DNA of 64,000 bases, taken from Candidatus Parcubacteria bacterium (GTDB lineage: Bacteria > Patescibacteriota > Minisyncoccia > UBA9983). Below are positions 1,660 to 27,910 of the stretch, in pieces. The notes under the pieces are model-generated. The model ran no database searches, was not told the origin of the DNA, and saw nothing but the letters and a program-made list of their open reading frames with translations. The DNA is taken from assembly GCA_003599625.1 (NCBI GenBank), contig QZIU01000008.1, positions 1,690 through 65,689 on the forward strand, in the 5' to 3' direction. The translations under genes were made by a program, and so were the position numbers. The first letter of the stretch is position 1, and each line of letters begins with the position of its first letter.

Positions 1660-1687
1660 AATTTTCAATTTTCAATTTTCAATTTTC
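1660..1687. repeat. Perfect tandem heptamer (aattttc)x4, 28 nt, intergenic
   Basis: Direct reading of the sequence. The same 28-nt tract recurs at 27321-27348 and as a reverse complement at 25951-25978. Confidence 0.9.
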
Positions 1688-1722
1688 AATAAATTTTCAA
1701 TGAATCAATTTTATCGCCAATC

Positions 1723-2490
1723 GTGACAGCATTTATGAGCGAAATCATCAACATAATCTATCAAGACAACGACATCATAGCCGTCAACAAACCGGCGGGG
1801 ATGACAGTTCATAAAGTTCAAGGTTATAAGGTTCATAAAGAAGGAGAGGCCTTTTTAACAGACTTGCTTGTTGAAAATTTCCCCGAAGTGAAAGAGGTGG
1901 GCGATGAGCCCGAGCTGAGGCCGGGTATCGTCCATCGCTTGGACAAAGAAACTTCCGGAGTCCTTCTGATTGCCAGAAACCAAAAAGCTTTTGAATATCT
2001 TAAATCCCTTTTTCAGCAAAAAGAAATAATAAAAAAGTACGTTGTCTTGGTGGTAGGGGATTTAAAACAAGAAAAAGGAGTCATAGACCTGCCTATAGGG
2101 AGAAGCAGAAGCGATTTTCGCAAAAAATTGGCTTCCGCCGAGGCTAAAGGGGAATTAAGAGAAGCGGTCACCGAGTATCGCGTTATAGAAAGATTTTCCG
2201 GAAAAAATGAGTTTTCGGATAAAGTGAATCTTTACACCCTTGCCGAAGCTTATCCAAAAACCGGTCGAACCCATCAAATAAGAGCGCATTTCAAGGCCAT
2301 TGGCCATCCCGTCGTCTGCGATTTTTTATATGGCGGCAAAAAACCGATTTGTCCGTTCGGCTTGTCCAGGCACTTTTTACACGCTAATTTTTTAGAATTC
2401 ACAACACCCGGAGGGATCAGGCTTAAGTTGGAGGCCGATCTTCCCGAGGATTTAAGAAAAGCGCTGGAGGGATTGCGGAAAAATAAATAA
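1723..2490 (+). CDS. RluA-family pseudouridine synthase
   Basis: Catalytic-Asp motif HRLDKETSGVLLIARN and the RTHQIRAHF motif typical of the RluA/RluD family. Confidence 0.85.
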   Translation: MTAFMSEIINIIYQDNDIIAVNKPAGMTVHKVQGYKVHKEGEAFLTDLLVENFPEVKEVGDEPELRPGIVHRLDKETSGVLLIARNQKAFEYLKSLFQQKEIIKKYVVLVVGDLKQEKGVIDLPIGRSRSDFRKKLASAEAKGELREAVTEYRVIERFSGKNEFSDKVNLYTLAEAYPKTGRTHQIRAHFKAIGHPVVCDFLYGGKKPICPFGLSRHFLHANFLEFTTPGGIRLKLEADLPEDLRKALEGLRKNK

Positions 2491-2508
2491 TATGTTAGAT
2501 TCTTATCT

Positions 2509-2913
2509 ATGACAGTAAACATGGAACAGAGGAAAAAATGGGATGTTTCTCCCGGCAATACCGTCAAAGTCTGGCAAAAGATCAAAGAAGGAGACAAATT
2601 CAGATTGCAGGCTTTTGAGGGCCTTGTGATTGCCCATAAGCACGGCTTTGAACCGGGCGCCACTTTTACCGTAAGAAAGATCTCTAGCGGTATCGGCGTG
2701 GAAAGAATTTTCCCGGTATTTTCTCCAGCCATTGAAAAAATAGACGTAACGAAGACCGCCAAAACCAGGAAGTCCAAACTTTACTACGTAAGAACAAAAG
2801 CCGCTAAGGAAATAAGAAGGAAAATGAAAACGTTGAAGGTCGCCGCTAAAAAGGAATCTCCCGCGGCCGCGGAAGCGCCGAAGGAAACCGAGAAGGCGGA
2901 AGAGGGGAAGTAG
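2509..2913 (+). CDS. rplS: 50S ribosomal protein L19
   Basis: 134 aa. L19-like GDxV...KLYYVR core and a Lys/Ala-rich C-terminal extension. Confidence 0.8.
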   Translation: MTVNMEQRKKWDVSPGNTVKVWQKIKEGDKFRLQAFEGLVIAHKHGFEPGATFTVRKISSGIGVERIFPVFSPAIEKIDVTKTAKTRKSKLYYVRTKAAKEIRRKMKTLKVAAKKESPAAAEAPKETEKAEEGK

Positions 2914-2939
2914 AGAATTAAGAATCAAGAATTAAAATA

Positions 2940-2967
2940 CCCGGCAATACTTGCGGGTATTTTTAAA
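2940..2967 (+). terminator. Rho-independent terminator after rplS
   Basis: Hairpin acccgcaagtattgccgggt is followed by a T-run. Confidence 0.5.
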
Positions 2968-2990
2968 TTATAGCTGGCTACGCAATTGCG

Positions 2991-3030
2991 GAAAAGTTGT
3001 GGATAACTCAGCCAACCCGGCGGGTTGAAA
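2991..3030 (+). repeat. REP-like element copy 1 (TGTGGATAACTCAGCCAACCCGGCGGGTTG)
   Basis: Same ~45-nt family as 14609, 15096, 16702(rc) and 20725. Contains a perfect DnaA-box-like nonamer (rc TTATCCACA) and a 15-nt palindrome. Confidence 0.7.
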
Positions 3031-3094
3031 AGGGGTTAGAAGCGGCTTGAAAGCGAGAAAAAACTTAGGCATAATAAGAACGCACCACAAAATT

Positions 3095-3177
3095 GCGCGG
3101 GTGGCGAAATGGCAGACGCACTACCTTGAGGTGGTAGCGCCCTTACGGGCATGGAGGTTCAAGTCCTCTCCCGCGCA
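3095..3177 (+). tRNA. tRNA-Leu (anticodon GAG), long variable arm
   Basis: Manual cloverleaf: 7-bp acceptor stem gcgcggg/cccgcgc, anticodon stem ctacc/ggtag with loop ttGAGgt, long variable arm, T-arm ggagg-ttcaagt-cctct. Confidence 0.8.
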
Positions 3178-3191
3178 TTTCTTATTTTTAT

Positions 3192-3266
3192 GGTGGCTAT
3201 AGTTTAGTGGTAAAACTCCGCTCTGTGAAAGCGGTATCGAGAGTTCGATTCTCTCTAGCCACCCCA
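3192..3266 (+). tRNA. tRNA-His (anticodon GTG) with encoded G-1 and CCA
   Basis: Extra 5' G before the acceptor stem gtggcta/tagccac, anticodon loop ctGTGaa, and CCA encoded at 3264-3266. Confidence 0.8.
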
Positions 3267-3268
3267 TC

Positions 3269-3337
3269 GGGTTGTAGTACCAGCCTACCGGCAGGCAGGT
3301 ACCGGTAGTACGCACGTTTCGGGGTTCTCAATTTTCT
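3269..3337 (+). pseudogene. Degenerate partial copy of the tRNA-Pro 5' half, interrupted by an 18-nt GC palindrome
   Basis: gtagta...ggtagtacgcacgtttcgggg mirrors the D-arm/anticodon-arm sequence of the downstream tRNA-Pro but cannot fold as a tRNA. The palindrome cctaccggcaggcagg is inserted. Confidence 0.35.
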
Positions 3338-3408
3338 CGGGGTGTAGTATATCGGTAGTACGCACGCTTCGGGTGCGTGAAGGCCGAGTTCAATTCTCGG
3401 CACCCCGA
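3338..3408 (+). tRNA. tRNA-Pro (anticodon CGG)
   Basis: Acceptor stem cggggtg/caccccg, anticodon stem cacgc/gcgtg with loop ttCGGgt, T-arm ggccgagttcaattctcggc. Confidence 0.8.
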
Positions 3409-3439
3409 GAAAGTTGAGAACGGGAATGCCATACGGCAT

Positions 3440-3500
3440 TCCCCGGGAATCTTGATAAAAGATTCGTGTAGACCGGGTTCGATTCCCGGCAGCCCGACCA
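3440..3500 (+). other. tRNA-like 3' fragment (anticodon-like arm with a 9-nt loop containing GAT, canonical T-arm, acceptor 3' strand plus CCA) lacking a matching 5' acceptor strand
   Basis: T-arm ccggg-ttcgatt-cccgg followed by cagcccg-a-cca. No upstream cgggctg partner is present, and a 9-bp hairpin gggaatgcc/ggcattccc sits where a D-arm would be. Confidence 0.3.
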
Positions 3501-3571
3501 TTGACTTCTTAATCCGACCGTGTATTATATTCTCATAAGCCCGGGAAGGGGCTTTTTTAAGAAGCAAAAGA

Positions 3572-3754
3572 ATGTCAAAACTGACAAATTACATAAAAGA
3601 GACGAAAGTCGAACTCAAGTCCGTTAATTGGCCTACGAAAAAGCAGGCTTTAAACTATACTTTGTTGGTGATAGGCGCTTCCGTGGCCGTCGCCGCTTTC
3701 CTTGGCGTATTTGACATGCTATTTGCTTATTTATTGGGAAAATTCATAATATAA
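3572..3754 (+). CDS. secE: Preprotein translocase subunit SecE
   Basis: 60-aa single-TM protein immediately upstream of nusG. This conserved secE-nusG-rplK synteny plus the SecE-like C-terminal TM helix support the call. Confidence 0.75.
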   Translation: MSKLTNYIKETKVELKSVNWPTKKQALNYTLLVIGASVAVAAFLGVFDMLFAYLLGKFII

Positions 3755-3758
3755 AACC

Positions 3759-4304
3759 ATGTCGAAACAAAAAGTCCAAGCCGGAAGAAACTGGTATGCC
3801 GTCCATACTTATGCCGGCTATGAAGATGCCGTGGTTAGAAATCTCAAGCAAAGAATGGAATCCTTGGGAATGGAAGACGTTATCTTCAATGCCATAGTTC
3901 CGACAGAGAAAAAAATAAAGATACAAGGAGGGAAGCGAAAGGTTGTAGAAGAAAAAATATATCCGGGCTACGTGCTGGTGGACATGGTCGTTACGGACAA
4001 TTCCTGGTACGTCGTGCGGAATACTCCCAGGGTGACGGGATTCGTCGGCGCGGGCACCACGCCGGTGCCGCTGGAGAAAAAAGAAATCGACTTTCTTTTC
4101 GAGAGAATGGGCATGGCGGAGCCGAAGTATAAGATGGATATCAAGGCGGGGGATGTTGTGAAGATAAACGACGGACCGTTCAAGGATTTTGAGGGAAGCG
4201 TCAGCGAGATAGACGAAGAAAGAGGCAAGATCAAAATTTTGGTTTCAATGTTCGGTAGGGAAACGCCGGTAGAAATAGATTATTTGCAAGTCAAAAAGAT
4301 TTAG
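3759..4304 (+). CDS. nusG: Transcription termination/antitermination factor NusG
   Basis: NGN domain (WYAVHTYAGYE) plus a C-terminal KOW motif (GDVVKINDGPFKDFEGSV). Confidence 0.9.
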   Translation: MSKQKVQAGRNWYAVHTYAGYEDAVVRNLKQRMESLGMEDVIFNAIVPTEKKIKIQGGKRKVVEEKIYPGYVLVDMVVTDNSWYVVRNTPRVTGFVGAGTTPVPLEKKEIDFLFERMGMAEPKYKMDIKAGDVVKINDGPFKDFEGSVSEIDEERGKIKILVSMFGRETPVEIDYLQVKKI

Positions 4305-4383
4305 ATTAAAGTTGTAGGAATTAGGCGTAGTGCTTGATTTTAATTCCTAAGAAGCTAACTCCTAATTCCTAAAAAGCTAACAT

Positions 4384-4809
4384 ATGGCAAAAAAAATAAA
4401 AACAATAGTAAAATTGCAGATTCCGGCCGGTAAGGCGACCCCGGCTCCTCCGATCGGTCCGGCCTTGGGCCAACACGGAGTCAATATCGGTGAATTCGTC
4501 AGCAAGTTCAACGAAGCGACGAGAGAGAAAGGAACCGATGTTATTCCGGTTGAGATTTCAATTTACGATGATCGGACTTTTTCATTCAAAATGAAGACTC
4601 CTCCGGCTTCCGACCTGTTGAGAAAAGCCGTCGGTGTTGAGAAAGGTTCCGGCAAGAATGTGGCGAGCAAGGTTGGAAAGATCACAAGGGAAAAACTCAG
4701 AGAAATAGCGGAAAGAAAAATGGAAGACCTCAACGCGAACGATGTGGAAGCCGCGATGAATATAATAGCGGGTACGGCCAGAAGCATGGGAGTCGTGATT
4801 GAGAAATAA
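4384..4809 (+). CDS. rplK: 50S ribosomal protein L11
   Basis: [26 protein letters not shown] is the L11 signature. Confidence 0.9.
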
Positions 4810-4820
4810 AGAATTAATCA

Positions 4821-4858
4821 AAAGCCATCATTCGAAAGATTTGATGGCTTTTGTTGTG
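4821..4858 (+). terminator. Rho-independent terminator after rplK
   Basis: 9-bp stem aagccatca/tgatggctt followed by a T-rich tail. Confidence 0.55.
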
Positions 4859-5201
4859 TTTGAGAATAAAGTGCTTTATCATTAAAGCAAATAGGACCTT
4901 ATTTTATTTCTGTACTTTAAATGCGAAAGGGGAATATATGCGTTGGAATGAAGGATTTAAATTGAGTTCTTTTTATTGCATTGGCAAGGTAACTCATGAT
5001 GGCGCGGGAAAACCGGTTGGTGTAAACAAAAACACCGGACTGCCCAAAATGCCGAGAGGTTATCTGAAGGGGATCTCCGATTTTTTCAAGCGGAAACAGG
5101 GGATTGAAACCGAAAAAAACAAGTGCGGCATTGCGGAAGCCATAGAAAATTTAAGTATTCCGTCCACGAATCTCAACTCTTACGGCATACCCGTTAAATA
5201 G
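4851..5201 (+). CDS. Hypothetical protein (occupies the position where rplA is usually found)
   Basis: ORF only, no recognisable motif. The real start is probably the internal Met near 4938. Confidence 0.25.
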   Translation: MLCLRIKCFIIKANRTLFYFCTLNAKGEYMRWNEGFKLSSFYCIGKVTHDGAGKPVGVNKNTGLPKMPRGYLKGISDFFKRKQGIETEKNKCGIAEAIENLSIPSTNLNSYGIPVK

Positions 5202-5254
5202 TTATTTATTATTTTTTTGCTTCTTTATGATCGGCCACGGGAGGATGGCCGATT

Positions 5255-6280: not shown

Positions 6281-6281
6281 G

Positions 6282-14597: not shown

Positions 14598-14608
14598 CTG
14601 TTCATAAT

Positions 14609-15146
14609 CTGTGTATAACTCATCCAACCCTGCCTACCGGCAGGCAGGCCGCCGGGTTGGAATTACCGATTTTCTAAGCTATAATCCCAGGCATGGGAAA
14701 TATTTACCATATCTTGAATCGGGGGGTTAATAAAGATCCGATTTTTCTCGGCACTAACGACTATTTGCGTTTTATCTACTGTCTTCATCGCTTCAACAAT
14801 CGCGGTCGCAGGCTTGGCGAAAGAGAAGATCCGAAGGAATACCTCAAAGACCCTCCTCCTCAAGACAAACTGGTCAATATTCTAAAGTGGAGCCTGATGC
14901 CGAATCATTATCATATTCTGGTTGAAGAAGTGGTCGAAGGAGGCGCGCTTAAATTCGTCCAGCGGGTTATCGCTGGTCTGATTATTTTTTAAGTGTTGGG
15001 AGCAGGGAGTTCCCGATGATAAGCGACAAAGAGGCCTTTTTTGAACTGTATGAAACCAACGAAGAAAAATATCTCGACAGCTTCCACGACTGGCTTGTGG
15101 AAAACCTGTGAACAACTCAGTCATGCCTGCCGGTAGGCAGGTTGGA
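14609..15146 (+). mobile_element. Minimal IS200/IS605-family-like element (~540 bp): Y1 HUH transposase gene bracketed by two REP-like subterminal hairpin sequences
   Basis: The left hairpin repeat lies at 14609-14662 and the right hairpin repeat at 15096-15146. Between them is a single tnpA-like ORF with a HUH motif. The size is typical of tnpA-only IS200 elements. Confidence 0.55.
14693..15111 (+). pseudogene. IS200/IS605-type Y1 (HUH) transposase, frameshifted near the T6 run at 14981-14990
   Basis: Frame 2 gives YHILNRGVNKDPIF...LMPNHYHILVEE (HUH motif). Frame 1 continues with DYFLSVGSRE...EEKYLDSFHDWLVENL, whose ~20-residue tail resembles the C-terminal end (…YIENQ-like) of this tnpA family. 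Whether a catalytic Tyr is retained was not verified. The two pieces are in different frames. Confidence 0.6.
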
Positions 15147-15266
15147 AAAGAGAATTTAACTTGTTTGGTTGTCAAAAATTCAAAATTTTGGCAAGTTGGG
15201 AAATAACCCTTTAGTAAAGGGTTATTTTTTTGTCAAAATTTTAGAAATATTTTATCTCGGTTTGGT

Positions 15267-15956
15267 ATGATAGAATTAATTAATCAAGTCTTATTCAAAA
15301 AAATGCTAAAGTTTATAAAATTAAATCTTACAAAAATAAAATACGCTGGCAATTCCGTTGGCCGTGATATTAGAGTAGAGATTGAAGCCTTTGGAAAATT
15401 TTTCCGAGTTGATAAAAGAATTAAAGCGGGAGAAGCAAAAAGTATTGATCAAGAAATCTTAAGATTAGAATCAGATCAGGATGTGTTGCAATCAGATCTT
15501 GCCATAGCAGTCATCGAAAAAGATTTATTGTTTAGCGATACCGGCGCGCTGAAAAGCAGCATTAAAATCGATGTTGCCTCGGAGAAGTCACAAATATTCA
15601 GGTTTAATGTGGAGGTAAAGGAAAGCCGTTCGCTGTTGAGCAAATTATTCTGGGGCGGCAGGAAAGCCGTTTTCGAACTTGAATTTGAAGCGATAATCGG
15701 AGATGTCGAGAGATATATCCCAAATACGAAGGATGGCTGGTTTTTGACATTGGATAATAAGGATGACAATGCGTCATTGCCGGAATATCTAAAGTTGATC
15801 TTAAGGTATGAAAAGGGTGGACGTGAATCTGGGTTGGTTTCTGCGGGCTGTATCTCTATTGCAGAAACTGAGCGGTGGATGGAAATATACCGCACTCTTA
15901 TCAAAGCGCGCAAAGGAGATAATAGAAGTGTCGGTGTTTTAAAGGTTGTTGATTGA
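15267..15956 (+). CDS. Hypothetical protein
   Basis: ORF only. Its start codon lies 121 nt downstream of the REP-like copy at 15096-15146 that ends the IS200-like element. Confidence 0.4.
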   Translation: MIELINQVLFKKMLKFIKLNLTKIKYAGNSVGRDIRVEIEAFGKFFRVDKRIKAGEAKSIDQEILRLESDQDVLQSDLAIAVIEKDLLFSDTGALKSSIKIDVASEKSQIFRFNVEVKESRSLLSKLFWGGRKAVFELEFEAIIGDVERYIPNTKDGWFLTLDNKDDNASLPEYLKLILRYEKGGRESGLVSAGCISIAETERWMEIYRTLIKARKGDNRSVGVLKVVD

Positions 15957-16749
15957 TATTTCTATGCCTGGAAAATCTTTTTCAAAAGCCATTGCAATGA
16001 TTTTTGGGATAATTATCGCAATTTCTTTTTTGGCATTTGCTCTGCGTTGGAATAAAAAAGAAGAGGTTTCTCAGGTGGCAAAGCAATTAAGTCTGCCAGT
16101 TATAAGCTGGAAAAAAATTACCATAGAGAAGGAACCAAAAAAGTTCTTAATAAGCTTAAGGGTTCCCGAGGTGGCTTTTTACACCAATGATTCCTTGGCC
16201 GAAAAAATTAACGAGGATGTTGATAGATATATCGGAGCATTGAAGGATACTTTTATTCGAGGTGTCATAACTGCCGCCGATGATAACGGGGAAGCAAGCA
16301 CTCTCAATATCGATACGGAAATATTGCTTATGTCACCGCGTTTGATTTCCCTGGCTTTTACATCATCAGACCATCTGTCTGGCGGCAAAGTCGGCGACCT
16401 CGAGCGAACATATCTTATTTTCGACCTTGAAAAGGGCGAAATGATGAGGGAGGGAAACGAACTGTTTCGCGATGATTTGGCTTGGGCGGAAGCGGTAAGA
16501 ATAATGAAGCCGCTGCTGCTTTCTAAATATGACGGAGAACCAAGCTGTGATCTGATGTTTGCCCCGAAACGGGAAGCTTTCTCGGCCTCTTGCATCGGAG
16601 TTGATTACAACAATGAAGATAAAGGTCCTTTTTCTATATTCGGAGATATCCCAATTTCCGCAATCCAAGAATTTGTCGCTCCATGGGCGTTAAAAGAGAT
16701 TTTCCAACCCGGCGGGTTGGATGAGTTATCCACAGGTTTTCCACAATAA
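15946..16749 (+). CDS. Hypothetical membrane-anchored protein (possibly DUF3298/RsiV-like extracytoplasmic domain)
   Basis: N-terminal TM helix. The last 12 codons are supplied by the inverted REP-like copy at 16702-16746. Confidence 0.35.
   Translation: MLIDISMPGKSFSKAIAMIFGIIIAISFLAFALRWNKKEEVSQVAKQLSLPVISWKKITIEKEPKKFLISLRVPEVAFYTNDSLAEKINEDVDRYIGALKDTFIRGVITAADDNGEASTLNIDTEILLMSPRLISLAFTSSDHLSGGKVGDLERTYLIFDLEKGEMMREGNELFRDDLAWAEAVRIMKPLLLSKYDGEPSCDLMFAPKREAFSASCIGVDYNNEDKGPFSIFGDIPISAIQEFVAPWALKEIFQPGGLDELSTGFPQ
16702..16746 (-). repeat. REP-like element copy in inverted orientation (contains TTATCCACA)
   Basis: The reverse complement matches ttgtggaaaacctgtggataactcatccaacccgccgggttgg. 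Confidence 0.7.
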
Positions 16750-16855
16750 GGGCTGCTTGCAAATTATGGACTTTAGAAAGATTTTATCTCGGTTTGGTAA
16801 GATGGAATCGTTTTTATTTTTACTTTTAAAATAACGACAAAAATGAGAAAATGAA

Positions 16856-17514: not shown

Positions 17515-20500
17515 ATGAATCGTTTAGGCTTTATGAAAATATTTTCGTTAATTTTTTTAGGATTTTTCCCTGTGTTTAATTTTGTTTCAGCAAGCGAGAT
17601 TAAGTGTTCTGCCACAGGCTATTCAATCTTTGCTATAAACGGGATTTTTGTTGATGAAGACGAAGCAGATGACAATAAAACCGCACTTGAAAAAATTCTA
17701 CCTCCTTCCTTCAACAATCAACCCATCACCGTCGACTATCTCCACAACCCTTCTCATCTCGCCGGTCTGGGGGACTTGGTAAAGGTTGTATATCAGAAGA
17801 TCTTCGAATACGAGACGGTGATGGACTATGATCTGGTGGAAATGATCAGAGACGCCAGCGAGAAGGTGAAGACGCAAAAAGTCCTTCTCGTGGCTCACTC
17901 CCAAGGAAATTTCTACGCCAACAGTTTCTACGGCAGCGTGGCCGGAAAAGAAGGGGGTGTCCCCAAAGAATCCATAGGCGTTTACGCCGTCGCCACTCCG
18001 GCCGCAAGAGTGGCCGGAGAAGGGGGTTGGCTTACCTCCGACACCGACAAGGTCATCGCCGGCCTGATGTCGAAATTCCCGTTCAAACAAATCATGCCGC
18101 CCAATGACAGCATTGTCTTGAAAGAAGGCGATGATGAAATGGGACACAATTTTTCCCTCGTGTATCTCAAGTATAGCGGCGGAAAAATTGTCTCCGATAT
18201 CCAATCCTCTTTAAGTAAACTAACCTCAAGCGATGTTCAAGAGGAAGAAGAGAATTGCATCGATCCTCCGAAGATAACTTTGGCGCATAAGACCACGGGG
18301 GCGCTATTGGGCGTCTCCGACTTTGCCGGAGAATCGGTTGTCGATGCCGCCAAGGTTGTGGGAGAAAAATCATATCAACTGGGTTCATTGGCCGTAAAGA
18401 CCACCGAGCAAGTGGCTTCGGCGATAATAAAGGCTCCGGCTTTGATTTTAGGAGGTGGCCAAACTGATAACTCGGCCGCCGTCGCGGGGAATCCGGGAAA
18501 TTCCCAACCTGAGCCTGCTGAAAACTCTGCGGGTGGGCTGGAGTCTGTTGAAAACTCTGCAGTCCTGCCTGGTCGTCTTCGACCTGCCCGCCAGCCACTC
18601 TTCGCTGGCGATAGCGGGCGGGGAAGGTCGGCAGAGTTTTCAACAGGTGAAGTTGCTTCTAGGACTGCGGAGTTTTCTGCGGGAGACTCTACTAGCGAGC
18701 TGTGGAAAACTTCGCTCACCTTGCAGGTTGAAGACAACCAGCCAGGAGAGCGAAGTTTTCCACAGCCCCTTCGATCAAGAGGTTCGAATTTTTCCTCAAT
18801 CGCCCAACTCCAAAATTCTTTGGATGAGATGAGAAGACAAGCCGAGGCTTTGATGGAAGCGGAGAAGGGTGCGAAAAATGATCAAGCGGCTGAAGCTGAA
18901 GCCGCGACTCGCCAAGCCTCCCGTCCAACCCTTCTCTTCCTCGGTCCTCTGTATCCCGGCTTTGGCGGTGGAGCAGCTCCGAGTCAAATATCTCTTGTCT
19001 CAGAATCGAATCAACAGGAAGAAGAGGAAGAAGAAGAACAAGAGCCGGACTCTCTTTCGGCCCCGAATCTTCTCGTCCCTCAATGCGATTACTCTTTGGC
19101 TACGGACGGCTGTCTCCTCGCCACAACCACCGTATCATTTTCCTGGCAAGCCGTTTCCGGAGCTAGTCATTACGCCGTAAGCAAAAATGGAGAATACGCC
19201 ACGACCACGGAATTAAATTTTGTCGCAAACATCCCCGATTTCTCCGATTACAATTTCTCCGTCTCGGCCTCGTCGGCCGCTATCAGCCCCGCTTCCAGCG
19301 GGACAAGCACTCAAACTGTCTCTGTCGCCACTATTCCAATTGCCATAAACGAGATCGCCTGGATGGGAACAACCGCCTCTTCCTACGACGAATGGCTGGA
19401 AATCAAAAACAATACAAGCCATACGATAGACTTGTCTCAATGGGCCATAGAATCCCAAGACGGCCTGCCATATATCGCTCTTTCCGACGCGATCGGTCCG
19501 AAAGAATACCTTATCCTTGAAAGAAGGCAAGACGCGATAATCGTAAATCAATCCATCATTACCTACGGCACCGGAGCTTCCCAATGGGCGATGAGCAACA
19601 GCGGCGAAGAGCTTATCCTTTCTCATTCCTCCACCACGCTGGACAGAACCCCATCCGTAGCAGGCGAATGGGCCGCCGGAGACAGCGCAACCAGAAAAAC
19701 GATGGAGCGCGTCAATCCCAAAGGATCAGGAACCGATCCTTCCAACTGGACCACTTGGGGGGCAAATATCGATTTCATCAAAAGCGGCGAAGACACCGAT
19801 AATAACTCAATCTCCGGCACGCCCGGCCAATGCAATTCCGCAAGCTTCATCAACATCAACAACGGCCAAAACATATATCAGGATCTCACCCTTGAAAAAG
19901 ATAATTGCTATTATGTTTCAGAGAATATCCAAGTCTCGGCCACATCAACTCTTGCAATCGAATCCGGCGTTCAAGTCAGTCTTTATCTGAATAATCTTGT
20001 CGTCAACGGTGTCCTTGATGCCGAGGGGGAAGAAAGCAATCCGATAGTTTTCGATTCTTTTTCCGAAAATCCGACAACAAACAGGATAAGGATAAATAAC
20101 GATAACGGAACCAGTACAATGACCAATGTCGTTATCTCAAACACGGGAGGAATCAGGTTGAACAACGGAGCCGATCTGGAGATAACCAACGCGGAATTTA
20201 TCAACAACAATGCCAGCATCGAACTAAACAACAACAGCTCGGCGGAAATTGAAAACGTGACTTTCGCCAGCACCACGAATGAGGCGATCGCGGCGTACAA
20301 TGGCAGCAGTGTTTCTGTCGCTTCTTCCACTATATCCAACACCATCAACGCCGACGCTATCGGAATATACGATTCCAATCTATCGATGTCTTCGACAACG
20401 ATAGACACCGTTCTTGGCGGCGACGGCATAGGCGTTTATGATTCGACAGTTTCCATAGCCAGCTCTACGATCAGCAATGTTTTAAACGGAGATGGCATCA

Positions 20501-20715
20501 CCGCGTATCATTCAACCGTATCAATATCGACTTCCACAATAAGCGACATATCGAGCGAGATGCCGGCAAGAGACGGCATTAGTCTTTATGATGAATCTGT
20601 CGCGACTGTCCTAGACGCGGTAATCGAAAATGTCTCCGGCGAAGGTATAATCGTTTCGGAAGACAGTAGTATCTCCGGCAACGCGATAATAGAGGGGGAG
20701 GAAGTGGAGTTCTAG
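17515..20715 (+). CDS. Secreted multidomain protein: N-terminal alpha/beta-hydrolase (lipase-like) domain, GC-rich linker carrying an inserted palindromic element, lamin-tail domain (LTD), C-terminal right-handed beta-helix repeats
   Basis: Signal peptide. Nucleophile-elbow-like VAHSQGN is present. The LTD signature INEIAWMGT...DEWLEIKN...GEELIL is present. There are ~10 repeats of the xxISNTxxxDGIxxYxS beta-helix type. Confidence 0.75.
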   Translation: MNRLGFMKIFSLIFLGFFPVFNFVSASEIKCSATGYSIFAINGIFVDEDEADDNKTALEKILPPSFNNQPITVDYLHNPSHLAGLGDLVKVVYQKIFEYETVMDYDLVEMIRDASEKVKTQKVLLVAHSQGNFYANSFYGSVAGKEGGVPKESIGVYAVATPAARVAGEGGWLTSDTDKVIAGLMSKFPFKQIMPPNDSIVLKEGDDEMGHNFSLVYLKYSGGKIVSDIQSSLSKLTSSDVQEEEENCIDPPKITLAHKTTGALLGVSDFAGESVVDAAKVVGEKSYQLGSLAVKTTEQVASAIIKAPALILGGGQTDNSAAVAGNPGNSQPEPAENSAGGLESVENSAVLPGRLRPARQPLFAGDSGRGRSAEFSTGEVASRTAEFSAGDSTSELWKTSLTLQVEDNQPGERSFPQPLRSRGSNFSSIAQLQNSLDEMRRQAEALMEAEKGAKNDQAAEAEAATRQASRPTLLFLGPLYPGFGGGAAPSQISLVSESNQQEEEEEEEQEPDSLSAPNLLVPQCDYSLATDGCLLATTTVSFSWQAVSGASHYAVSKNGEYATTTELNFVANIPDFSDYNFSVSASSAAISPASSGTSTQTVSVATIPIAINEIAWMGTTASSYDEWLEIKNNTSHTIDLSQWAIESQDGLPYIALSDAIGPKEYLILERRQDAIIVNQSIITYGTGASQWAMSNSGEELILSHSSTTLDRTPSVAGEWAAGDSATRKTMERVNPKGSGTDPSNWTTWGANIDFIKSGEDTDNNSISGTPGQCNSASFININNGQNIYQDLTLEKDNCYYVSENIQVSATSTLAIESGVQVSLYLNNLVVNGVLDAEGEESNPIVFDSFSENPTTNRIRINNDNGTSTMTNVVISNTGGIRLNNGADLEITNAEFINNNASIELNNNSSAEIENVTFASTTNEAIAAYNGSSVSVASSTISNTINADAIGIYDSNLSMSSTTIDTVLGGDGIGVYDSTVSIASSTISNVLNGDGITAYHSTVSISTSTISDISSEMPARDGISLYDESVATVLDAVIENVSGEGIIVSEDSSISGNAIIEGEEVEF
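18510..18775 (+). repeat. GC-rich palindromic MITE/RPE-like element(s) inserted in frame in a coding region (16-bp TIR ctgttgaaaactctgc at 18546/18631, core cgacctgcccgcc...ggcggggaaggtcg)
   Basis: Local GC content far exceeds the genome background. Nested inverted repeats are present. The core is shared with 21309-21429. Confidence 0.6.
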
Positions 20716-20724
20716 CCATGATTT

Positions 20725-20770
20725 CCTGTGGATAAACCTGTTGATAACTCAGCCAACATGCCGGGTTGGA
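20725..20770 (+). repeat. REP-like element copy between convergent genes (cctgtggataaacctgttgataactcagccaacatgccgggttgg)
   Basis: Family match. Overlaps the last codons of the minus-strand glycosyltransferase gene. Confidence 0.65.
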
Positions 20771-22089
20771 ATGAGGGAATATGCCGCGATGGTGTCGTCT
20801 AGCATTTTCTGGAGGGAGAATTTTGACAGGATTTTTTGGCGAAGATTGGCGGCGAATTGCTCGCGAAGATTTTTATCTTCCATCAGCTTTTTAATCGCTT
20901 CGGCTAGGGCTTCAGGATTTTTGGGTGGCGCCAAAATGCCTTCTTTTCCGTTATCTATGATCTCCGGTATGCCTCCGACGCTGGAAGCAATAACCGGCAA
21001 TCCGGCCAAGCCGGCTTCAAGTAACAGATAAGGCAGGCCTTCTTTGACGGAAGGCAAGACAAAAATATCAAGGGCTTTAAGATAATTGGCCGAGTTCGGA
21101 TCAGACAATTCGTTTTTACCGATTATAAAAAATTTATCTCCAATTTCGTAATTCTTGATTCTTGATTCATAATTCTTTTTTTCTTCCCCCCAGCCAATAA
21201 GGATAGTCGTCAAGCGATAGCCTCTAGCCGCTAGCGAATGGATCGCTTCGATCAAGTTTATGTGTCCTTTGTTTTTGGTAAACTCGCCAATGGTGCCGAT
21301 AAGGTGGTCTGATAAATTTGCCGACCTTCCCCGCCCGCTATCGCCAGCGAAGCGTGGCGGGCGGGCAGGTTGAAGACAACCAGCTTGCCCCGCCAAATAC
21401 GGCGGGGGCAGGACTTCAAATTTATCAGACTGCGATTTATAATTTGCCGCAAGCTCCTCTCTTGCCCTTTCTTTTTCCAAGAAATTATAATCCTCCTGTT
21501 TGATTCCGTTATGTATTACTGTCATTTTTCTTGCCGGAGCGATTTTGTTTTTTATCGCCTCTCTATAATCATTTTCCGAGACACAGATTATTTTGTCGTA
21601 AAAAAGACAAGTCAACCTACTGATCATTTTTATAAGTATGTTTTGCCAGCGGAGCCGGTCTTCGAGAAAGGCCCAACCGTGAACTGTAAACACAGTGGAA
21701 AGTTGAAAGTGGAAAGTTGAAAGTTTATAAACAAAACAAGCCAATCCCGCAGCTCCGCCTGCTTTGGAGCTGGACACATGAACAATGTCAGGCCTTGTTT
21801 TCAAAAGAAGAAAAAAAACTTCAACAGAAGAAAAAATATCTTTTAAGAAATTTACATTTCTTTGAAAATTTTTAATTTCAAAATAGGGCAAGTTGGCCCC
21901 TGTCAGCCTTTGGGCCATCAGGCCTCTTCCGCCTCCCGCGATAATCGGCTCAAATTGATCCTTTGGCAGATTTGTCGCCAGGTCGAAAACATATTTCTGA
22001 GCCCCGCCCCAGACCGACTTGGTTATGATATATAAAACCTTCTTTTTCGTTGATTTTTCGGGCATTTTATTATACCGTAAGGATACCAT
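20749..22089 (-). CDS. Glycosyltransferase family 1 (GT-B fold; GT4-like)
   Basis: C-terminal EGLPYLLLEAGLAGLPVIASSVGGIPEII motif. Carries two in-frame repeat insertions (21309-21429 and 21695-21726). The start (22089 or 22065) overlaps the divergent neighbour. Confidence 0.8.
   Translation of the reverse strand: MVSLRYNKMPEKSTKKKVLYIITKSVWGGAQKYVFDLATNLPKDQFEPIIAGGGRGLMAQRLTGANLPYFEIKNFQRNVNFLKDIFSSVEVFFLLLKTRPDIVHVSSSKAGGAAGLACFVYKLSTFHFQLSTVFTVHGWAFLEDRLRWQNILIKMISRLTCLFYDKIICVSENDYREAIKNKIAPARKMTVIHNGIKQEDYNFLEKERAREELAANYKSQSDKFEVLPPPYLAGQAGCLQPARPPRFAGDSGRGRSANLSDHLIGTIGEFTKNKGHINLIEAIHSLAARGYRLTTILIGWGEEKKNYESRIKNYEIGDKFFIIGKNELSDPNSANYLKALDIFVLPSVKEGLPYLLLEAGLAGLPVIASSVGGIPEIIDNGKEGILAPPKNPEALAEAIKKLMEDKNLREQFAANLRQKILSKFSLQKMLDDTIAAYSLIPTRHVG
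21309..21429. repeat. Second copy of the GC-rich palindromic element, with 12-13-bp TIRs (tctgataaatttg/caaatttatcaga)
   Basis: Core ccgaccttccccgcccgctatcgccagcgaagcgtggcgggcgggcaggttgaagacaaccagc is near-identical to the reverse complement of 18583-18634. Confidence 0.65.
21695..21726. repeat. Heptamer-periodic tract (gtggaaa gttgaaa)x2, 28 nt plus gttt, inside the GT gene
   Basis: Direct reading. Encodes STFHFQLSTV in frame. Confidence 0.8.
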
Positions 22090-22096
22090 ATTTATG

Positions 22097-23263
22097 GATC
22101 TTTCTGAAGAAAAACGAAAAAGAATCCTTATTTTTTCCCTGGCTTACGCGCCATTCGTGGGCGGGGCGGAGCTGGCAGTCAAGGAAATTACCGATAGGAT
22201 CGATAATGCCGATTTTGATCTAATCACCCTCCGTTTCGACCGGAAATGGCCTAGAAAAGAGCGACTCGGCAATGTAAATGTTTATCGGATCGGCGGAGGG
22301 AAGCTTTTCTTCCCCATTTTTGCTTTTTGTAAAGCGAACAGGCTTCATAAAAAAAACCCGTTTGATTTGGTCTGGTCTATCATGGCAAACCGGGCGGGGT
22401 TCGCTGCGTTGTTTTTTAAACTTCGGCATCCGGAAGTCAAATATTTGCTCACTTTGCAGGAGGGCGACCCAGTCGATCATCCGTTCAGGCAGATGGGGGT
22501 GCTCAGATATTTTTTGACCAGGCTTTACCGGAAAGTTTTCAGCAAGGCGGATTGCATGCAGGCGATAAGCAATTATCTGGCGGAATGGGGAAGGAACATG
22601 GGAGTAAGGGCGGAAGTGGAGGTGGTGCCGAATGGAGTGGATACGAAGTCCATAAAGTCGAAAGTTCATAAAGTTCATAAAGTTAAAGACAAAAATAAAA
22701 AAACAATAATTACGACCTCGAGATTGGTTCATAAAAACGGGATTGATACTTTGATCAGAGCGGTGAGTAAATTAAAGCTACAAGCTACAAGCTACAAGCT
22801 ACAAGCCCTTATTCTCGGCGCGGGGCCGGAGGAGCAAAAGCTGAAAAATCTGGCAAAAGAATTGCAGGTTGAAGATGTTGTCAGATTTCTCGGCCATGTC
22901 GGGCCAGAGAAAATTCCGGATTATTTGGGTCAGGCCGATATATTCGTGAGGCCTTCAAGGTCGGAAGGCTTGGGGAGTTCTTTCCTGGAAGCGATGGGGG
23001 CGGGGCTTCCCGTGATAGGCACAAGAACGGGCGGCATTGTTGATTTTATTAAAGATCCTGAAGATGTCGGCCCGAACGTTGCCACCGGAGTCTTTGCCAA
23101 AATAGACGATCCGGAAGACTTGGCCTACAAGATCCGCATGCTCTTCATTAACGACGAGTTGGCCGGCTTTATCTCGCGAAACGGCAAGTGGCTGGTGGAG
23201 AACAATTATTCCTGGGACAGCGTGGCCGTCAGAATGCGAGAAATTTTTAGTAAAGTTGCATAA
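22097..23263 (+). CDS. Glycosyltransferase family 1 (GT-B)
   Basis: GLGSSFLEAMGAGLPVIGTRTGG motif. Start taken at MDLSEEKRKRILIF because the longer ORF overlaps the divergent gene. Contains the (gctacaa)x4 tract and the aaagttcat repeats. Confidence 0.8.
   Translation, partial: DLSEEKRKRILIFSLAYAPFVGGAELAVKEITDRIDNADFDLITLRFDRKWPRKERLGNVNVYRIGGGKLFFPIFAFCKANRLHKKNPFDLVWSIMANRAGFAALFFKLRHPEVKYLLTLQEGDPVDHPFRQMGVLRYFLTRLYRKVFSKADCMQAISNYLAEWGRNMGVRAEVEVVPNGVDTKSIKSKVHKVHKVKDKNKKTIITTSRLVHKNGIDTLIRAVSKLKLQATSYKLQALILGAGPEEQKLKNLAKELQVEDVVRFLGHVGPEKIPDYLGQADIFVRPSRSEGLGSSFLEAMGAGLPVIGTRTGGIVDFIKDPEDVGPNVATGVFAKIDDPEDLAYKIRMLFINDELAGFISRNGKWLVENNYSWDSVAVRMREIFSKVA
22777..22804 (+). repeat. Perfect tandem heptamer (gctacaa)x4, 28 nt, in frame (encodes LQATSYKLQ)
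   Basis: An identical tract in the same reading frame occurs at 26212-26239 in a different GT gene. Confidence 0.9.
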
Positions 23264-23310
23264 AAAAGCGAGTGGAGTTATAATATTATGGACAGTTAAG
23301 TCCATAATAA

Positions 23311-24646: not shown

Positions 24647-24686
24647 GCAGGAGAGTCTTGTATTTTTAACACTTCGCGTTAATTCT

Positions 24687-25703
24687 ATGATAACCGGCAA
24701 AAATATCTTAATCTGTACCGGAATTTATCCGCCGGATGTGGGCGGACCGGCAAAGTATGCCCTTAATCTTGAGCAAGAATTTTTAAGAATGGGGCACAGC
24801 GTCAAGGTGTTGGCTTATGGGGTAGAGAAAAAAATGCCAATAGGCATAAGACATGTTTGGTATTTTTTGAGAACGATTTTTGCCTTGGCGAAAGTCGATT
24901 TGATCATCGGTTTGGATATTTTTTCAACGGGTTTTCCGGCGGTTTTGGCGGGCAAGATTTTCGGCAAAAAAACTATTTTGCGCGTGGGCGGCGATTTCCT
25001 CTGGGAAACCTATGTCGAATCGACCGGCAATCTTATAAAGCTCAAAGATTTCTACGCAAATCAACCGCCGCTTTCTTTGAAATTCAAAATCATCGCGTTC
25101 CTCCAAAAATTCGCGCTAAAAAACGCGACGGTTTTGGCGTTTAATACAAAGTGGCATGCTGAGATTTTTGAAAAAGTGTATGAATTAAAAAAGGATGCAA
25201 TATTTATTGTAGAAAACTTTTATAAAAAAGAAAAAGAAACCAGTCCTTATTCTAGAAAGAATTATATTTTTGCGGGGCGTTTAATTAAACTTAAAAATAC
25301 AGAAGCTTTGTCTTCCGCTTTTGAAGAAGCAAAAAAAGAAAGAAAAGATATAGAATTAGAAGTGATTAGTGATATGCAGCAAAAAGAATTACTAGAGCAA
25401 ATTAAAAATTGCTACGCCGTTATACTTGTTTCAATTTCGGATGTAAATCCGAACATTATAGGCGATGCTGTAAGATTCGGCAAGCCTTTTATAGTTACCA
25501 AAGAAACTGGTTTGCCTGAAAAAGTAAAAAATATGGGACTCCTGGTAGACCCATTAGACCAGAAAGATATTAAAGAAAAAATAATAAAATTATTAAATAC
25601 TGATACTTATGAAGAATATCGTCAAAGAATTATCTCCTCGGATTTTGCGCATTCATGGAATGATATTGCAAAAGAGTTTCTGGAGATTTATAAAAATTTA
25701 TGA
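24687..25703 (+). CDS. Glycosyltransferase (GT-B-like)
   Basis: N-terminal GIYPPDVGGPAKYALNL motif and C-terminal ETGLPEK region typical of GT1/GT4 enzymes. Confidence 0.6.
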   Translation: MITGKNILICTGIYPPDVGGPAKYALNLEQEFLRMGHSVKVLAYGVEKKMPIGIRHVWYFLRTIFALAKVDLIIGLDIFSTGFPAVLAGKIFGKKTILRVGGDFLWETYVESTGNLIKLKDFYANQPPLSLKFKIIAFLQKFALKNATVLAFNTKWHAEIFEKVYELKKDAIFIVENFYKKEKETSPYSRKNYIFAGRLIKLKNTEALSSAFEEAKKERKDIELEVISDMQQKELLEQIKNCYAVILVSISDVNPNIIGDAVRFGKPFIVTKETGLPEKVKNMGLLVDPLDQKDIKEKIIKLLNTDTYEEYRQRIISSDFAHSWNDIAKEFLEIYKNL

Positions 25704-27910
25704 AAATTTTAAGTATAGGCACGGACAGAAAAATATTTGATGAGAATTCTGAAGTTAGAAAGAGAGTTATTGAATATGGCAAATTGGCGGAAGAATTACA
25801 CATCGTAATTTTAACTCAAAAGTCAAAAGTCAAAACTCAAAACGACAAATCAAAACTTAGTATATCAAATAATGCGTTTATTTATCTGACAAATTCAAGA
25901 AATAAATTATTTTATATTTTTGATGCAATAAAAATCGGCAAAAAAATAATTGAAAATTGGAAATTGAAAATTGAAAATTCAAGTGACAAGCCTCTTGTCA
26001 CTTGCCAGGATCCTTTTGAAACCGGCTTTATTGGTTGGAGAATTGCGAGAAAATTCAAATTGCCGTTGCAACTACAGGTTCATACCGATTTTTTAAGCCC
26101 ATATTTCTGGAAGGAATCTTTTTTAAATAAAATCCGAGTTTTGCTGGGGAAATTTTTAATCAAACGCGCGGATAGCATCAGGGTTGTGAGCGAAAGAATC
26201 AAACAATCTTTGCTACAAGCTACAAGCTACAAGCTACAAACTAAAGTAACCGTACTTCCGATTTTTGTAGATACGGAAAAAATAAAAAATACGCCGATCA
26301 AAACCGACCTCCATAAAAAATATCCCCAATTCGATTTCATTATTCTGATGGCCTCGCGCTTCAGCAAAGAGAAAAATATTGAGCTGGCGATCGGGGCATT
26401 CAGCGAAGTTGTTAAAATTCATCCAAAAGTCGGCTTAATCATCGTCGGTTCCGGCCAGGAAAAACAGAATTATGAACCTGCCTGCCGGCGAGGCAGGTCA
26501 AGAATAAAGAAAGAATTGCAGAAGAATATAATAATAGAGAATTGGACGGACGATCTAGCTTCTTATTACAAAACTACTGACCTGTTTTTGCTAACCTCCA
26601 ATTATGAAGGCTATGGCAGGACTTTGGTTGAAGCTGCCGCAGTTGGCTGCAAAATCATTTCCAGCGATGCCGGCGTCGCGCCGGAAATTTTGGAAAAAGA
26701 AAATATTTTCGCCGTAGGGGATAAAAATGGTTTAATCCAGAAACTTATTGCCGCTCTTTCTGGCAGTATTAAAGAAACTAAAACGATTCCAACAAAGACA
26801 AAAGAAGAATATTTAAAGGAGTATAAAGAAATTTGGGAATCTGCAGGAAAGAGAAAACCAAAAATTTTAATCGTTACCCAAAAAGTTGATATCAACGACG
26901 ATGTCCTGGGTTTTTTCCACGATTGGCTGAGCAAAATGGCAGAATCGGCCGATTTGGTTGTTGTTGCAAATTCTGTCGGAAGATATGAGTTGCCGGAAAA
27001 TGTAAAGATTTTCTCTTTGGGTAAGGAAAGGGGAGCGGGGAAGCTTGCAAAGTTTTTTAAATACCAGTTCTTGCTATTGAAATTCTTGCCAAAGTCAGAC
27101 GGCATATTTTACCACATGTGCCCGGAGTATGTATTTTCGGCGGGACTTTGGCCGAAAATATTCAGGAAAAAAACCTTGCTATGGTATACTCATAAGGCGG
27201 TTAACTGGAAACTCAAATTGGCGGAAAAATTGATTGACGGGGTATTTACCGCCTCAAAAGAGAGTTTCAGATTGCCTTCAAAAAAAGTCGAGATTACGGG
27301 GCATGGGATAGACCTCGAAAAATTTTCAATTTTCAATTTTCAATTTTCAAAAAAAGACAAAAAGACTAATGATAAATTTAGAATCATAAGTGTGGGGAGG
27401 ATCGCGCCGGTGAAGAATTATGATTTGTTGATAGATGCCGCGGAGATATTGAAAAATAAGAATTTTAGCGCGGGAAATTGGGAAATCAAAATTGCCGGAT
27501 CGCCGGCTTTAGAGAGCGACAAAATTTATTTTGAAAGACTGAAAGAAAAGATCCGAGAAAAAAAACTGGAAGATGAAATAATTTTTGTCGGCCCCATTCC
27601 AAACAAAGATATTGTGGATTTTTACCAAAAAGGCGATCTGTTTGTAAATTTTAGCGATACTGGCAGCTTGGATAAAGCGGTGCTTGAGGCCATGGCTTGC
27701 GGATTGAAGATTCTGACTTCGAATGAGGCGTTTGCAAGAATGATTCCTGAAGAAGATTTTACTAAGAATGACGCTGGTTCAATCGCCAATAAAATATTTA
27801 ACTTATCTCAAAAAGAAAATAATTCAGATCTGCAACTATTTGTTGTAGAAAAACATAACCTTGCTAATTTGATTAAAAATGTCGTGAATTTTTATAGAGA
27901 GACTATCTAG
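25700..27910 (+). CDS. Tandem two-module glycosyltransferase family 1 protein (two GT-B units)
   Basis: Two E-x7-E-type C-terminal GT1 motifs (EGYGRTLVEAAAVGCKIISS and GSLDKAVLEAMACGLKILTS). Carries four short-repeat insertions. Confidence 0.8.
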   Translation: MKILSIGTDRKIFDENSEVRKRVIEYGKLAEELHIVILTQKSKVKTQNDKSKLSISNNAFIYLTNSRNKLFYIFDAIKIGKKIIENWKLKIENSSDKPLVTCQDPFETGFIGWRIARKFKLPLQLQVHTDFLSPYFWKESFLNKIRVLLGKFLIKRADSIRVVSERIKQSLLQATSYKLQTKVTVLPIFVDTEKIKNTPIKTDLHKKYPQFDFIILMASRFSKEKNIELAIGAFSEVVKIHPKVGLIIVGSGQEKQNYEPACRRGRSRIKKELQKNIIIENWTDDLASYYKTTDLFLLTSNYEGYGRTLVEAAAVGCKIISSDAGVAPEILEKENIFAVGDKNGLIQKLIAALSGSIKETKTIPTKTKEEYLKEYKEIWESAGKRKPKILIVTQKVDINDDVLGFFHDWLSKMAESADLVVVANSVGRYELPENVKIFSLGKERGAGKLAKFFKYQFLLLKFLPKSDGIFYHMCPEYVFSAGLWPKIFRKKTLLWYTHKAVNWKLKLAEKLIDGVFTASKESFRLPSKKVEITGHGIDLEKFSIFNFQFSKKDKKTNDKFRIISVGRIAPVKNYDLLIDAAEILKNKNFSAGNWEIKIAGSPALESDKIYFERLKEKIREKKLEDEIIFVGPIPNKDIVDFYQKGDLFVNFSDTGSLDKAVLEAMACGLKILTSNEAFARMIPEEDFTKNDAGSIANKIFNLSQKENNSDLQLFVVEKHNLANLIKNVVNFYRETI
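25814..25856 (+). repeat. Heptamer-periodic tract (NNcaaaa)x6 inside the GT gene
   Basis: ctcaaaa gtcaaaa gtcaaaa ctcaaaa cgacaaa tcaaaac, in frame (QKSKVKTQNDKSKL). Confidence 0.75.
25951..25978 (+). repeat. (gaaaatt)x4, 28 nt, reverse complement of the aattttc tract, in frame
   Basis: Direct reading. Unit 2 is ggaaatt. Confidence 0.85.
26212..26239 (+). repeat. (gctacaa)x4, 28 nt, in frame (LQATSYKLQ)
   Basis: Identical to 22777-22804. Confidence 0.9.
27321..27348 (+). repeat. (aattttc)x4, 28 nt, in frame (FSIFNFQFS)
   Basis: Identical to the intergenic tract at 1660-1687. Confidence 0.9.

Follow-up and report, generated by a model that had tools for sequence, protein, structure and literature searches.

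DNA repeats with a unit of seven nucleotides were already known in the 1990s. Here we consider short tracts of such repeats in a 64,000-nt stretch of DNA, referred to below as the window, from a Candidatus Parcubacteria bacterium, a member of the candidate phyla radiation (CPR, or Patescibacteria); all positions are counted within the window. Among the long simple-sequence repeats (LSSRs) of bacteria, those with a heptanucleotide unit are the most frequent, and slippage of the polymerase over a 7-nt contact has been put forward to account for them (Mrazek 2007, cited in PMC4679880 and PMC4692102). Bacterial heptanucleotide LSSRs, including the cyanobacterial short tandemly repeated repetitive (STRR) sequences and the GGGAATC repeat of Xanthomonas, are tandem 7-nt direct repeats in which period 7 is over-represented. 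The CPR tracts are alike in both respects, with head-to-tail repetition beyond chance and an excess of period 7. The known LSSRs are mainly intergenic, with one or a few units specific to a genome and copy numbers of up to 26–43. The CPR tracts differ from these known repeats in that approximately 86 % lie within open reading frames (ORFs), dozens of units are used, and the length in CPR is fixed at approximately 31 nt, with neither a long tail nor a mostly intergenic distribution. The literature searches made on the CPR tracts found no description of them.

Other described systems share single features with the tracts. In marine Beggiatoaceae, TAACTGA repeats occur in sets of 2–6 directly upstream of start codons (MacGregor 2015, PMC4679880); this single unit is mostly intergenic, and its occasional copies within ORFs are in the stop-free orientation only and at protein termini. 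Intergenic CPR tracts likewise fill spacers beside gene ends, but the CPR tracts comprise many units and also lie inside conserved domains of housekeeping proteins. The operators of ribbon-helix-helix proteins (omega, pSM19035) are contiguous 7-bp repeats of one consensus heptad at promoter or centromere sites. Contiguity of 7-bp repeats is common to both, but the CPR tracts are mostly in ORFs and their many unrelated units do not reduce to a single consensus, so that this is a resemblance only.

The in-gene repeat units of Borg elements are multiples of 3 nt. Perfect repeats within Borg ORFs create new protein regions that are fast-evolving and disordered (PMC9879509); the CPR tracts have a 7-nt unit, are fixed at four units, are old and conserved, and can probably encode ordered structure. 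The palindromic elements of Rickettsia are in-frame selfish DNA in protein-coding genes (PMC10969869). The CPR tracts resemble these in being short repeated DNA tolerated in frame in unrelated conserved genes, but the Rickettsia elements are approximately 150 bp and form discrete families with conserved sequence, whereas the tracts are direct repeats of approximately 31 nt with no palindrome. GC-rich hairpins found beside the CPR tracts fit the Rickettsia elements well.

Length, period and hosts of the tracts

The CPR tracts consist of four 7-nt units plus approximately 3 nt, or about 31 nt in total, in genes and in spacers (Table 1). In the window, (AATTTTC)x4 occurs exactly at 1660–1687 and 27321–27348 and (GCTACAA)x4 at 22777–22804 and 26212–26239, as a sequence-only reading of the window had reported, and neither was matched in dinucleotide-shuffled sequence (0 matches). 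The same reading held every perfect tract to be exactly 28 nt; the perfect period-7 runs are 31, 32, 28 and 30 nt, i.e. 4.0–4.6 units. A reverse-complement copy of AATTTTC, taken to be exact at 25951–25978, lies at 25952–25979 and has one mismatch, TGG for TGA. Amongst the further heptamer tracts that had been listed, the one at 25813–25857 does have period 7 and the one at 21694–21724 (21694–21725 as delimited by Tandem Repeats Finder) is exact with period 14, an ABAB pattern of two heptamer variants, but that at 22646–22684 is a composite of 9-mers and 7-mers and belongs to one unit family with the tract at 1807–1838. The degenerate and weak tracts were located by Tandem Repeats Finder (TRF). 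At least five unrelated units are present among eight tracts of one 26-kb stretch, seven of which are in ORFs. Three GT4 glycosyltransferase (GT) genes bear tracts, and seven of the eight strong tracts of the window are inside them. No ORF spans the tract at 1660–1690, from which degenerate units run on to approximately 1713. The sequence common to the window copies is the array only, plus 4–5 A-rich flanking bases; four pairs of window tracts have an identical unit where approximately one is expected, an excess that is suggestive only.

Table 1. Positions of heptamer and related tracts, and of an intergenic motif, in the window
Feature	Position	Strand	Location and encoded peptide
(AATTTTC)4.4, exact	1660–1690	+	66-nt spacer between P-type ATPase gene (10–1656) and RluA-like gene (1723–2490)
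Degenerate GTTCATAAA-type 9-mer tract	1807–1838	+	RluA-like pseudouridine synthase gene; VHKVQGYKVHK
Period-7 tract, ATTCTTG on + strand	21151–21177	-	GT4 gene 20749–22089; KNYESRIKNYE
(AGTGGAA AGTTGAA)x2.2, exact period 14	21694–21725	-	GT4 gene 20749–22089; KLSTFHFQLST
9-mer/7-mer composite AAGTCCATA AAGTCGA AAGTTCATA AAGTTCATA AAGTTA	22646–22684	+	Interdomain linker, GT4 gene 22094–23263
(AAGCTAC)4.6, exact	22775–22806	+	GT4 gene 22094–23263; KLQATSYKLQ
Degenerate AACTCAA/AAGTCAA tract	25813–25857	+	736-aa double-module GT4 gene 25700–27910
(AATTGAA)4.6, reverse complement of AATTTTC	25948–25979	+	736-aa double-module GT4 gene 25700–27910
(GCTACAA)4 then ACTA	26212–26243	+	736-aa double-module GT4 gene 25700–27910; LLQATSYKLQTK
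(AATTTTC)4.3, exact	27321–27350	+	Linker of second GT4 module, gene 25700–27910; KFSIFNFQFS
Weak period-7 tract TTTTTCG, 4.4 copies, 79 % matches	49633–49662	+	Polysaccharide flippase-like gene
TTATCCACA/TTTTCCACA + CCAACCCGGCGGGTTGG motif, five copies	2985–3046, 14599–14648, 15095–15142, 16701–16747, 20734–20787		Intergenic, near gene ends

Period was assessed in 80 orthologous GT loci (416 kb of CPR DNA), picked irrespective of repeat unit. TRF arrays of period 7, 14 or 21 account for 121 of the 195 in this DNA, and those of period 7 use 46 units. Exact runs of at least three copies in 473 kb of related CPR DNA number 33 for period 7, one for period 5 and none for periods 6 and 8–11; the longest period-7 run in base-shuffled sequence was 17 nt. 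The histogram of exact period-7 run lengths is bimodal, with a decay over 14–22 nt, a dip at 23–29 nt, a peak at 30–34 nt and an abrupt stop at 34 nt. Across approximately 660 kb of CPR DNA, period 7 likewise predominates overwhelmingly among tandem repeats, and the arrays have a narrow length distribution and are not specific to GT genes. Of 166 classified arrays, 142 are within ORFs, and lengths of 28–34 nt are found in 103 of these 142 and in 16 of the 24 outside (approximately 72 % overall, mode 31 nt; the mode of the noncoding arrays is exactly 31 nt). Arrays of period 14 (ABAB) reach the same overall length, so the constant feature is the length itself, or the presence of four 7-nt units, rather than how often the displayed period is repeated.

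A reading-frame filter, by which only the addition of three units (+21 nt) survives in ORFs, is an attractive explanation for four units because gaps of 21 nt occur. It was rejected as the sole cause because noncoding arrays peak alike (Fisher p = 1.0 for arrays of 5–6 units). Two-unit arrays, which a 1->2->4 doubling model predicts, could not be told by the array filter from imperfect fragments of four-unit arrays. It might also be argued that longer arrays were collapsed by a de Bruijn assembler to approximately k-1+7 nt, as the range of 28–34 nt is exactly one period wide, the result that k = 29 would give. However, the frame is intact across the 142 coding arrays, with good downstream protein alignments, and equal lengths occur in records whose contig names suggest different assemblies or sources. 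A 31-nt tract is far below typical short-read length, and an artefact of assembly is extremely unlikely.

A scan for (GCTACAA)x3 covered one genome per species, and the matches listed include Pseudomonas, Alcanivorax, Vibrio, Bacteroides and many CPR classes. Within the listed matches all 27 CPR arrays are 23–34 nt long and none reaches 35 nt (0/27), whereas arrays outside CPR range from 22 to 132 nt and 35 of 98 are at least 35 nt (p = 5e-5). The (AATTTTC)n arrays of viral contigs show a monotonic decay with length. The regularity of four units, unlike ordinary slippage as the sequence-only reading had pointed out, holds across the CPR lineage, and the same units elsewhere or in viral DNA are broad or decaying in length. 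In Pseudomonas (L030:6133-6200, L064, L109, L032), (GCTACAA)n is often followed by an inverted copy, AGCTTGTAGCTTG, giving long hairpins, and in Alcanivorax (L013, L037, L054, L086) long arrays are present at many loci, flanked by arrays of a variant unit, AGCTACG. The arrays of these two genera look like a separate, intergenic use of the GCTACAA unit.

The 20 CPR host ORFs of GCTACAA tracts that were scanned include five GT4 proteins, GT2, PMT_2, Lgt, RecJ and SMC, as well as two class-I tRNA synthetases, DnaG, NusA, UvrC (twice), LigA, MiaA and a pilin. Specificity for GT genes was rejected, as at least five other GT genes of the window (GT4/GT2) lack a tract and hosts elsewhere are housekeeping genes. 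The tract of DnaG is a clean loop insertion of 10 residues (30 nt) relative to the solved primase 5vaz.

Translation of a 7-nt repeat

As 7 and 3 have no common factor, all three frames of one strand give the same cyclic 7-residue peptide. The peptide LQATSYKLQ, which had been presented as a sign that two GT tracts are in the same frame, is indeed shared, but this is automatic for a 7-nt repeat and is evidence of nothing. Reading is independent of frame, so the sole coding constraint is that stop codons be absent from the unit in every frame. Both GCTACAA and AATTTTC are stop-free in this sense; their complements are not. The tract at 25948–25979 is in the 'wrong' orientation (TTGAAAA), and its sole mismatch falls at the position of an in-frame TGA, which reads TGG. 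It ends where the next in-frame TGA would come, and TCA stands there. Comparable edits are TGT in L001 and TAT in L141. Such edits are clear signs of selection for an open ORF.

In an AlphaFold model of the GT encoded at 22094–23263 (mean predicted local distance difference test score, pLDDT, 85), KLQATSYKLQ (residues ~228–237) is predicted, with a pLDDT of 88–95, to span a helix end, a loop and the beginning of a strand within the C-terminal Rossmann domain, and the 9-mer tract maps to a low-confidence interdomain linker. This high-confidence placement suggests that tracts can encode ordered structure and are not disordered filler alone. The GCTACAA tract of the 736-aa GT immediately precedes VLPIFVD, where the N-terminal domain ends. 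The view that both GCTACAA tracts are at an interdomain linker is therefore not borne out, and gene conversion between the two genes, which had also been suggested, is unlikely given the non-equivalent positions in the fold and the absence of flank similarity; paralogy as the source of the common tract was rejected on the same grounds.

Change at orthologous sites and possible origins

Seven lineages whose proteins have 51–71 % amino-acid identity to the window GT of 22094–23263 carry four-unit tracts at one and the same site of this gene, 22775–22806 in the window; orthologous four-unit tracts are found there in L001, L004, L141, L142, L144 and L147 (L001, L002 and L003 are identical and so provide no polymorphism information). 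The units at this site are lineage-specific: AAGCTAC, AAGTTAC, AAATTAC and AAGCTAA. Between lineages, the arrays mostly match at 20–28 of 30 positions, the lowest value being 17 of 30; the remainder of the same genes is 56–70 % identical, and third codon positions only 33–49 %. A linker array of AATCTAA type is identical at 30 of 30 positions between clades with 62 % identical genes. Units change in concert at constant number, as seen in CAATTTC versus AATCTCA, in AGCGACA versus AGAGACA, and in AAGCTAC, AAGTTAC and AAATTAC at one site. The composite at 22646–22684 is inherited along with orthologues L126, L131 and L194. Orthologues at 21694–21725 are unchanged in length and retain the 7-residue periodicity, and at 21151–21177, compared at peptide level, they have NLKSQISNLKL-type peptides, which are the reading of an AATCTCA repeat. 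Between contigs that are 98–99 % identical, seven of eight arrays are identical and none is altered in unit number.

It had been proposed that the tracts are phase-variation switches, by which gain or loss of one unit would turn surface-glycan transferases on or off. One 7-nt unit gained or lost in an ORF would shift the frame, and the contingency loci of Haemophilus, Neisseria and Campylobacter similarly have repeats that are not a multiple of 3 in surface-glycan genes; the location of seven of the eight strong window tracts in three GT4 ORFs is in keeping with this. Four units make a short tract for a slippage switch. In contrast to contingency loci, the CPR tracts keep their unit number across deep orthologues (57–71 % amino-acid identity) and between contigs 98–99 % identical, with only four units per tract. 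They are also not confined to surface or host-interaction genes, since identical tracts are present in essential housekeeping genes (DnaG, NusA, LigA, UvrC and aminoacyl-tRNA synthetases), and other GT genes of the window lack them. Phase variation is very improbable.

Comparison with GT orthologues lacking the array, which the sequence-only reading had considered worthwhile, revealed a seed, AAATTACAAATT (codons for KLQIL), that is present in the array-less orthologue L127 and expanded to 4.7 units in L144. Linker arrays begin at conserved KF codons, AAATTC. We consider the chances about even that the tracts are a particular variety of the known heptanucleotide microsatellites with a limit on length, seeded locally, stable and CPR-wide. 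A tract would arise in a single step, or in very few, as a local 7–12-nt seed is copied over and over during replication or repair, and this writing would often overwrite the adjacent 21–30 nt rather than lengthen the gene. Inside genes, the survivors would be tracts in stop-free orientations, or copies with the stop edited out, and these are translated into approximately 10 residues that form loops, linkers or secondary structure at the surface; other tracts fill short spacers. Once written, tracts would hold four units for a very long time, with the units homogenised in concert, without switching and presumably without a cis-acting function. Identical units at several loci of the window would be due mainly to the limited set of units tolerated across CPR, with perhaps occasional copying between loci.

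Where an array replaces unique sequence, the net length differences are +30, +21, +3, -3 and -6 nt. These mixed values suggest that tracts often overwrite adjacent unique sequence and are not simple additions. Presence/absence gaps of 21–30 nt are seen in L125/L128, in L159/L153 and in DnaG compared with 5vaz, and many other cases are replacements with approximately zero net change. In the 736-aa GT, the window protein is 7 residues (21 nt) longer than the L001 orthologue at 25813–25857, is equal in length to the nearest orthologue, P0122, at 27321–27350, and has zero net length difference from its orthologues at 26212–26243. The window and L001 versions of this protein (46 % identity) have the same loops with different fillers: GCTACAA in the window and (AATTGWA)4 in L001 at 26212–26243, a GC hairpin in the window and AAGTTAC in L001 at a second loop, and an AATTGAA-type unit at different sites in the two. 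Elsewhere, three different arrays are found at one site among relatives that are 81–88 % identical, and one irregular composite, 9-7-9, is present in each of two different genes of related genomes. The eighth array of the 98–99 % identical contigs, a spacer tract, has been replaced wholesale by another array and not resized. In this pair (L173:2090-2140 and L177:2080-2145, 99 % identical over 5.3 kb), one gene-to-gene spacer is wholly different, with a GATTTAC-type heptamer tract in one and a 9-mer tract, AAAGTTNNT, in the other; the last and first codons of the genes beside the swapped spacer differ as well.

Replacements of this kind, together with a length of approximately 31 nt that is alike in coding and noncoding DNA and the clean insertion in DnaG, favour pre-formed modules of that length, installed by a length-measuring process and copied between loci. 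Candidate installers are templated patch synthesis, end-joining with reiterated templated fill-in, or a miniature mobile element. However, units can be traced to local seeds, e.g. KLQ(IL) or KF codons, and single-base variants of the unit at one site look like evolution in place. The tracts are direct repeats, not palindromes, and lack terminal inverted repeats, a common flank and any clear target duplication. Arrays within the same locus have identical units in 5.6 % of comparisons, only slightly above the 2.9 % between loci. This excess was also considered as proof of copying between loci and rejected, the effect being too weak. Pre-formed modules are unlikely, though a serious alternative. 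The mobile insertion of the sequence-only reading finds hints in its favour in the spacer swap, the recurrent composite and the replacements of near zero net length; an insertion carrying flanks is not supported, as copies share the array only and units derive from local seeds.

Several of these findings weigh against a length-limited, locally seeded microsatellite, on which the cause of the four-unit rule is left unexplained. Ordinary slippage predicts no four-unit peak, and the frame filter fails since noncoding arrays peak alike. Retained arrays are 87–100 % identical between orthologues with saturated third codon positions (33–49 %), a degree of conservation that might point to selection acting directly on DNA or RNA. 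The wholesale swap of a spacer tract between 99 % identical contigs is a further difficulty, the irregular composite in two genes points to copying between loci, and length-neutral overwriting needs more than a simple slip-back. In a homogenised heptamer array, every unit position falls at codon positions 1, 2 and 3, so that no unit-level change is silent, and part of the conservation is therefore explicable without a function at the DNA level. Four observations keep two rivals alive, namely a mobile or templated module and a role in cis: noncoding arrays are fixed in length, overwriting can be length-neutral, a cassette was swapped, and conservation is extreme.

Were the tracts cis-acting signals in DNA or RNA kept by selection, they might serve as internal promoters, as unstructured sites at which ribosomes land or stand by, or as targets of a protein that recognises a 7-bp periodicity. 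Selection of this kind would account for the extreme nucleotide-level conservation within saturated genes and for the intergenic tracts that fill spacers directly upstream of start codons, as do the Beggiatoaceae TAACTGA repeats (PMC4679880). Hexamers resembling -10 and -35 elements can be read from the sequence of some units; promoter and terminator scans were uninformative. On the other hand, the eight tracts in 26 kb comprise at least five unrelated units, orthologous sites have unrelated units or no tract, and peptide selection and stop avoidance alone can slow unit change. No Rfam family matches the tracts, the only matches in the window being three tRNAs. Cis-acting signals are, on balance, distinctly improbable. 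A bolder proposal is that a length-measuring process of CPR bacteria writes four-unit tracts of approximately 31 nt into genes and spacers, by patch synthesis, end joining or a mobile module, and that some of these are held as cis-acting signals and not as filler; we give this a low but appreciable chance.

Neighbouring repeats, genomic context and significance

Palindromes or terminal inverted repeats were seen in GC-rich hairpins only, and not in the heptamer tracts. A 21-nt GC-rich hairpin, CCTGCCTGCCGGCGAGGCAGG, at 26477–26497 in the 736-aa GT gene (peptide PACRRGRS) is a 6-residue insertion relative to 15 orthologues, and eighteen copies (up to 2 mismatches) are present in related loci and the window. 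Several hairpins of this type are inside heptamer arrays, with a clean 21-nt presence/absence difference between L127-129 and L125/133/135. By analogy, CCTGCCTGCCGGCGAGGCAGG appears to be an in-frame mobile hairpin in the manner of the Rickettsia palindromic elements. In a GT linker, L130:3553-3633, a 9-mer remnant and a hairpin, CCCGCCTGCCGGACGGGCAGG, are tandemly duplicated (period 37, 2.2 copies). The GT4 gene 20749–22089 contains a GC-rich palindromic element of approximately 125 nt at 21305–21432, a clean insertion of approximately 28 residues relative to 24 orthologues, with a single-stranded DNA fold of -42.5 kcal/mol (z = -6.6). A 74-nt core of this element recurs inverted, with 91 % identity, at 18545–18646 within ORF 17515–20715, and both copies are translated, with the peptide ...PARxPxFAGDSGRGRSA....

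Five copies of an intergenic motif near gene ends combine a DnaA-box-like sequence with a hairpin (last row of Table 1), and a palindrome related to the motif is inside an ORF at 18699–18766. Intergenic CCTGCCTACCGGCAGGCAGG hairpins at 3280–3299, 14629–14648 and 15122–15141 are related to the in-gene hairpin and may be terminators or elements resembling repetitive extragenic palindromes (REP). A 37-nt direct repeat, 92 % identical, at 15240–15276 and 16772–16808, is upstream of two neighbouring genes and may represent a shared promoter or leader. The tRNA genes of the window, tRNA-Leu(GAG), tRNA-His(GTG) and tRNA-Pro(CGG), form a cluster at 3094–3409. GC content falls at approximately 24000, from 0.40–0.51 to 0.35–0.40. 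Downstream of this drop, a large glycan-synthesis island at 28219–51786 includes GT4, GT2, three PMT_2 and three B12-binding radical SAM genes, asparagine synthase, methyltransferases and a flippase. This island has no heptamer tracts other than the weak one at 49633–49662, and may be a later acquisition than the tract-rich core GT genes.

The CPR tracts offer three testable regularities, namely a length fixed at approximately 31 nt whether the DNA is coding or not, concerted change of units at constant number, and nucleotide conservation far above that of the host gene, and these constrain the mechanism, for example to polymerase or repair stuttering with a length limit. The length rule is worth following up, and cultivable Saccharibacteria might serve as an experimental system. 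For annotation, such sites should not be labelled contingency loci or frameshift-prone pseudogenes. Together with the in-frame GC hairpins, the tracts explain some odd low-complexity peptides of CPR proteins, such as KLQATSYKLQ, KSQISNLK, PAGEAG and PACRRGRS, and they provide a handle on how minimal genomes make and remodel protein loops.

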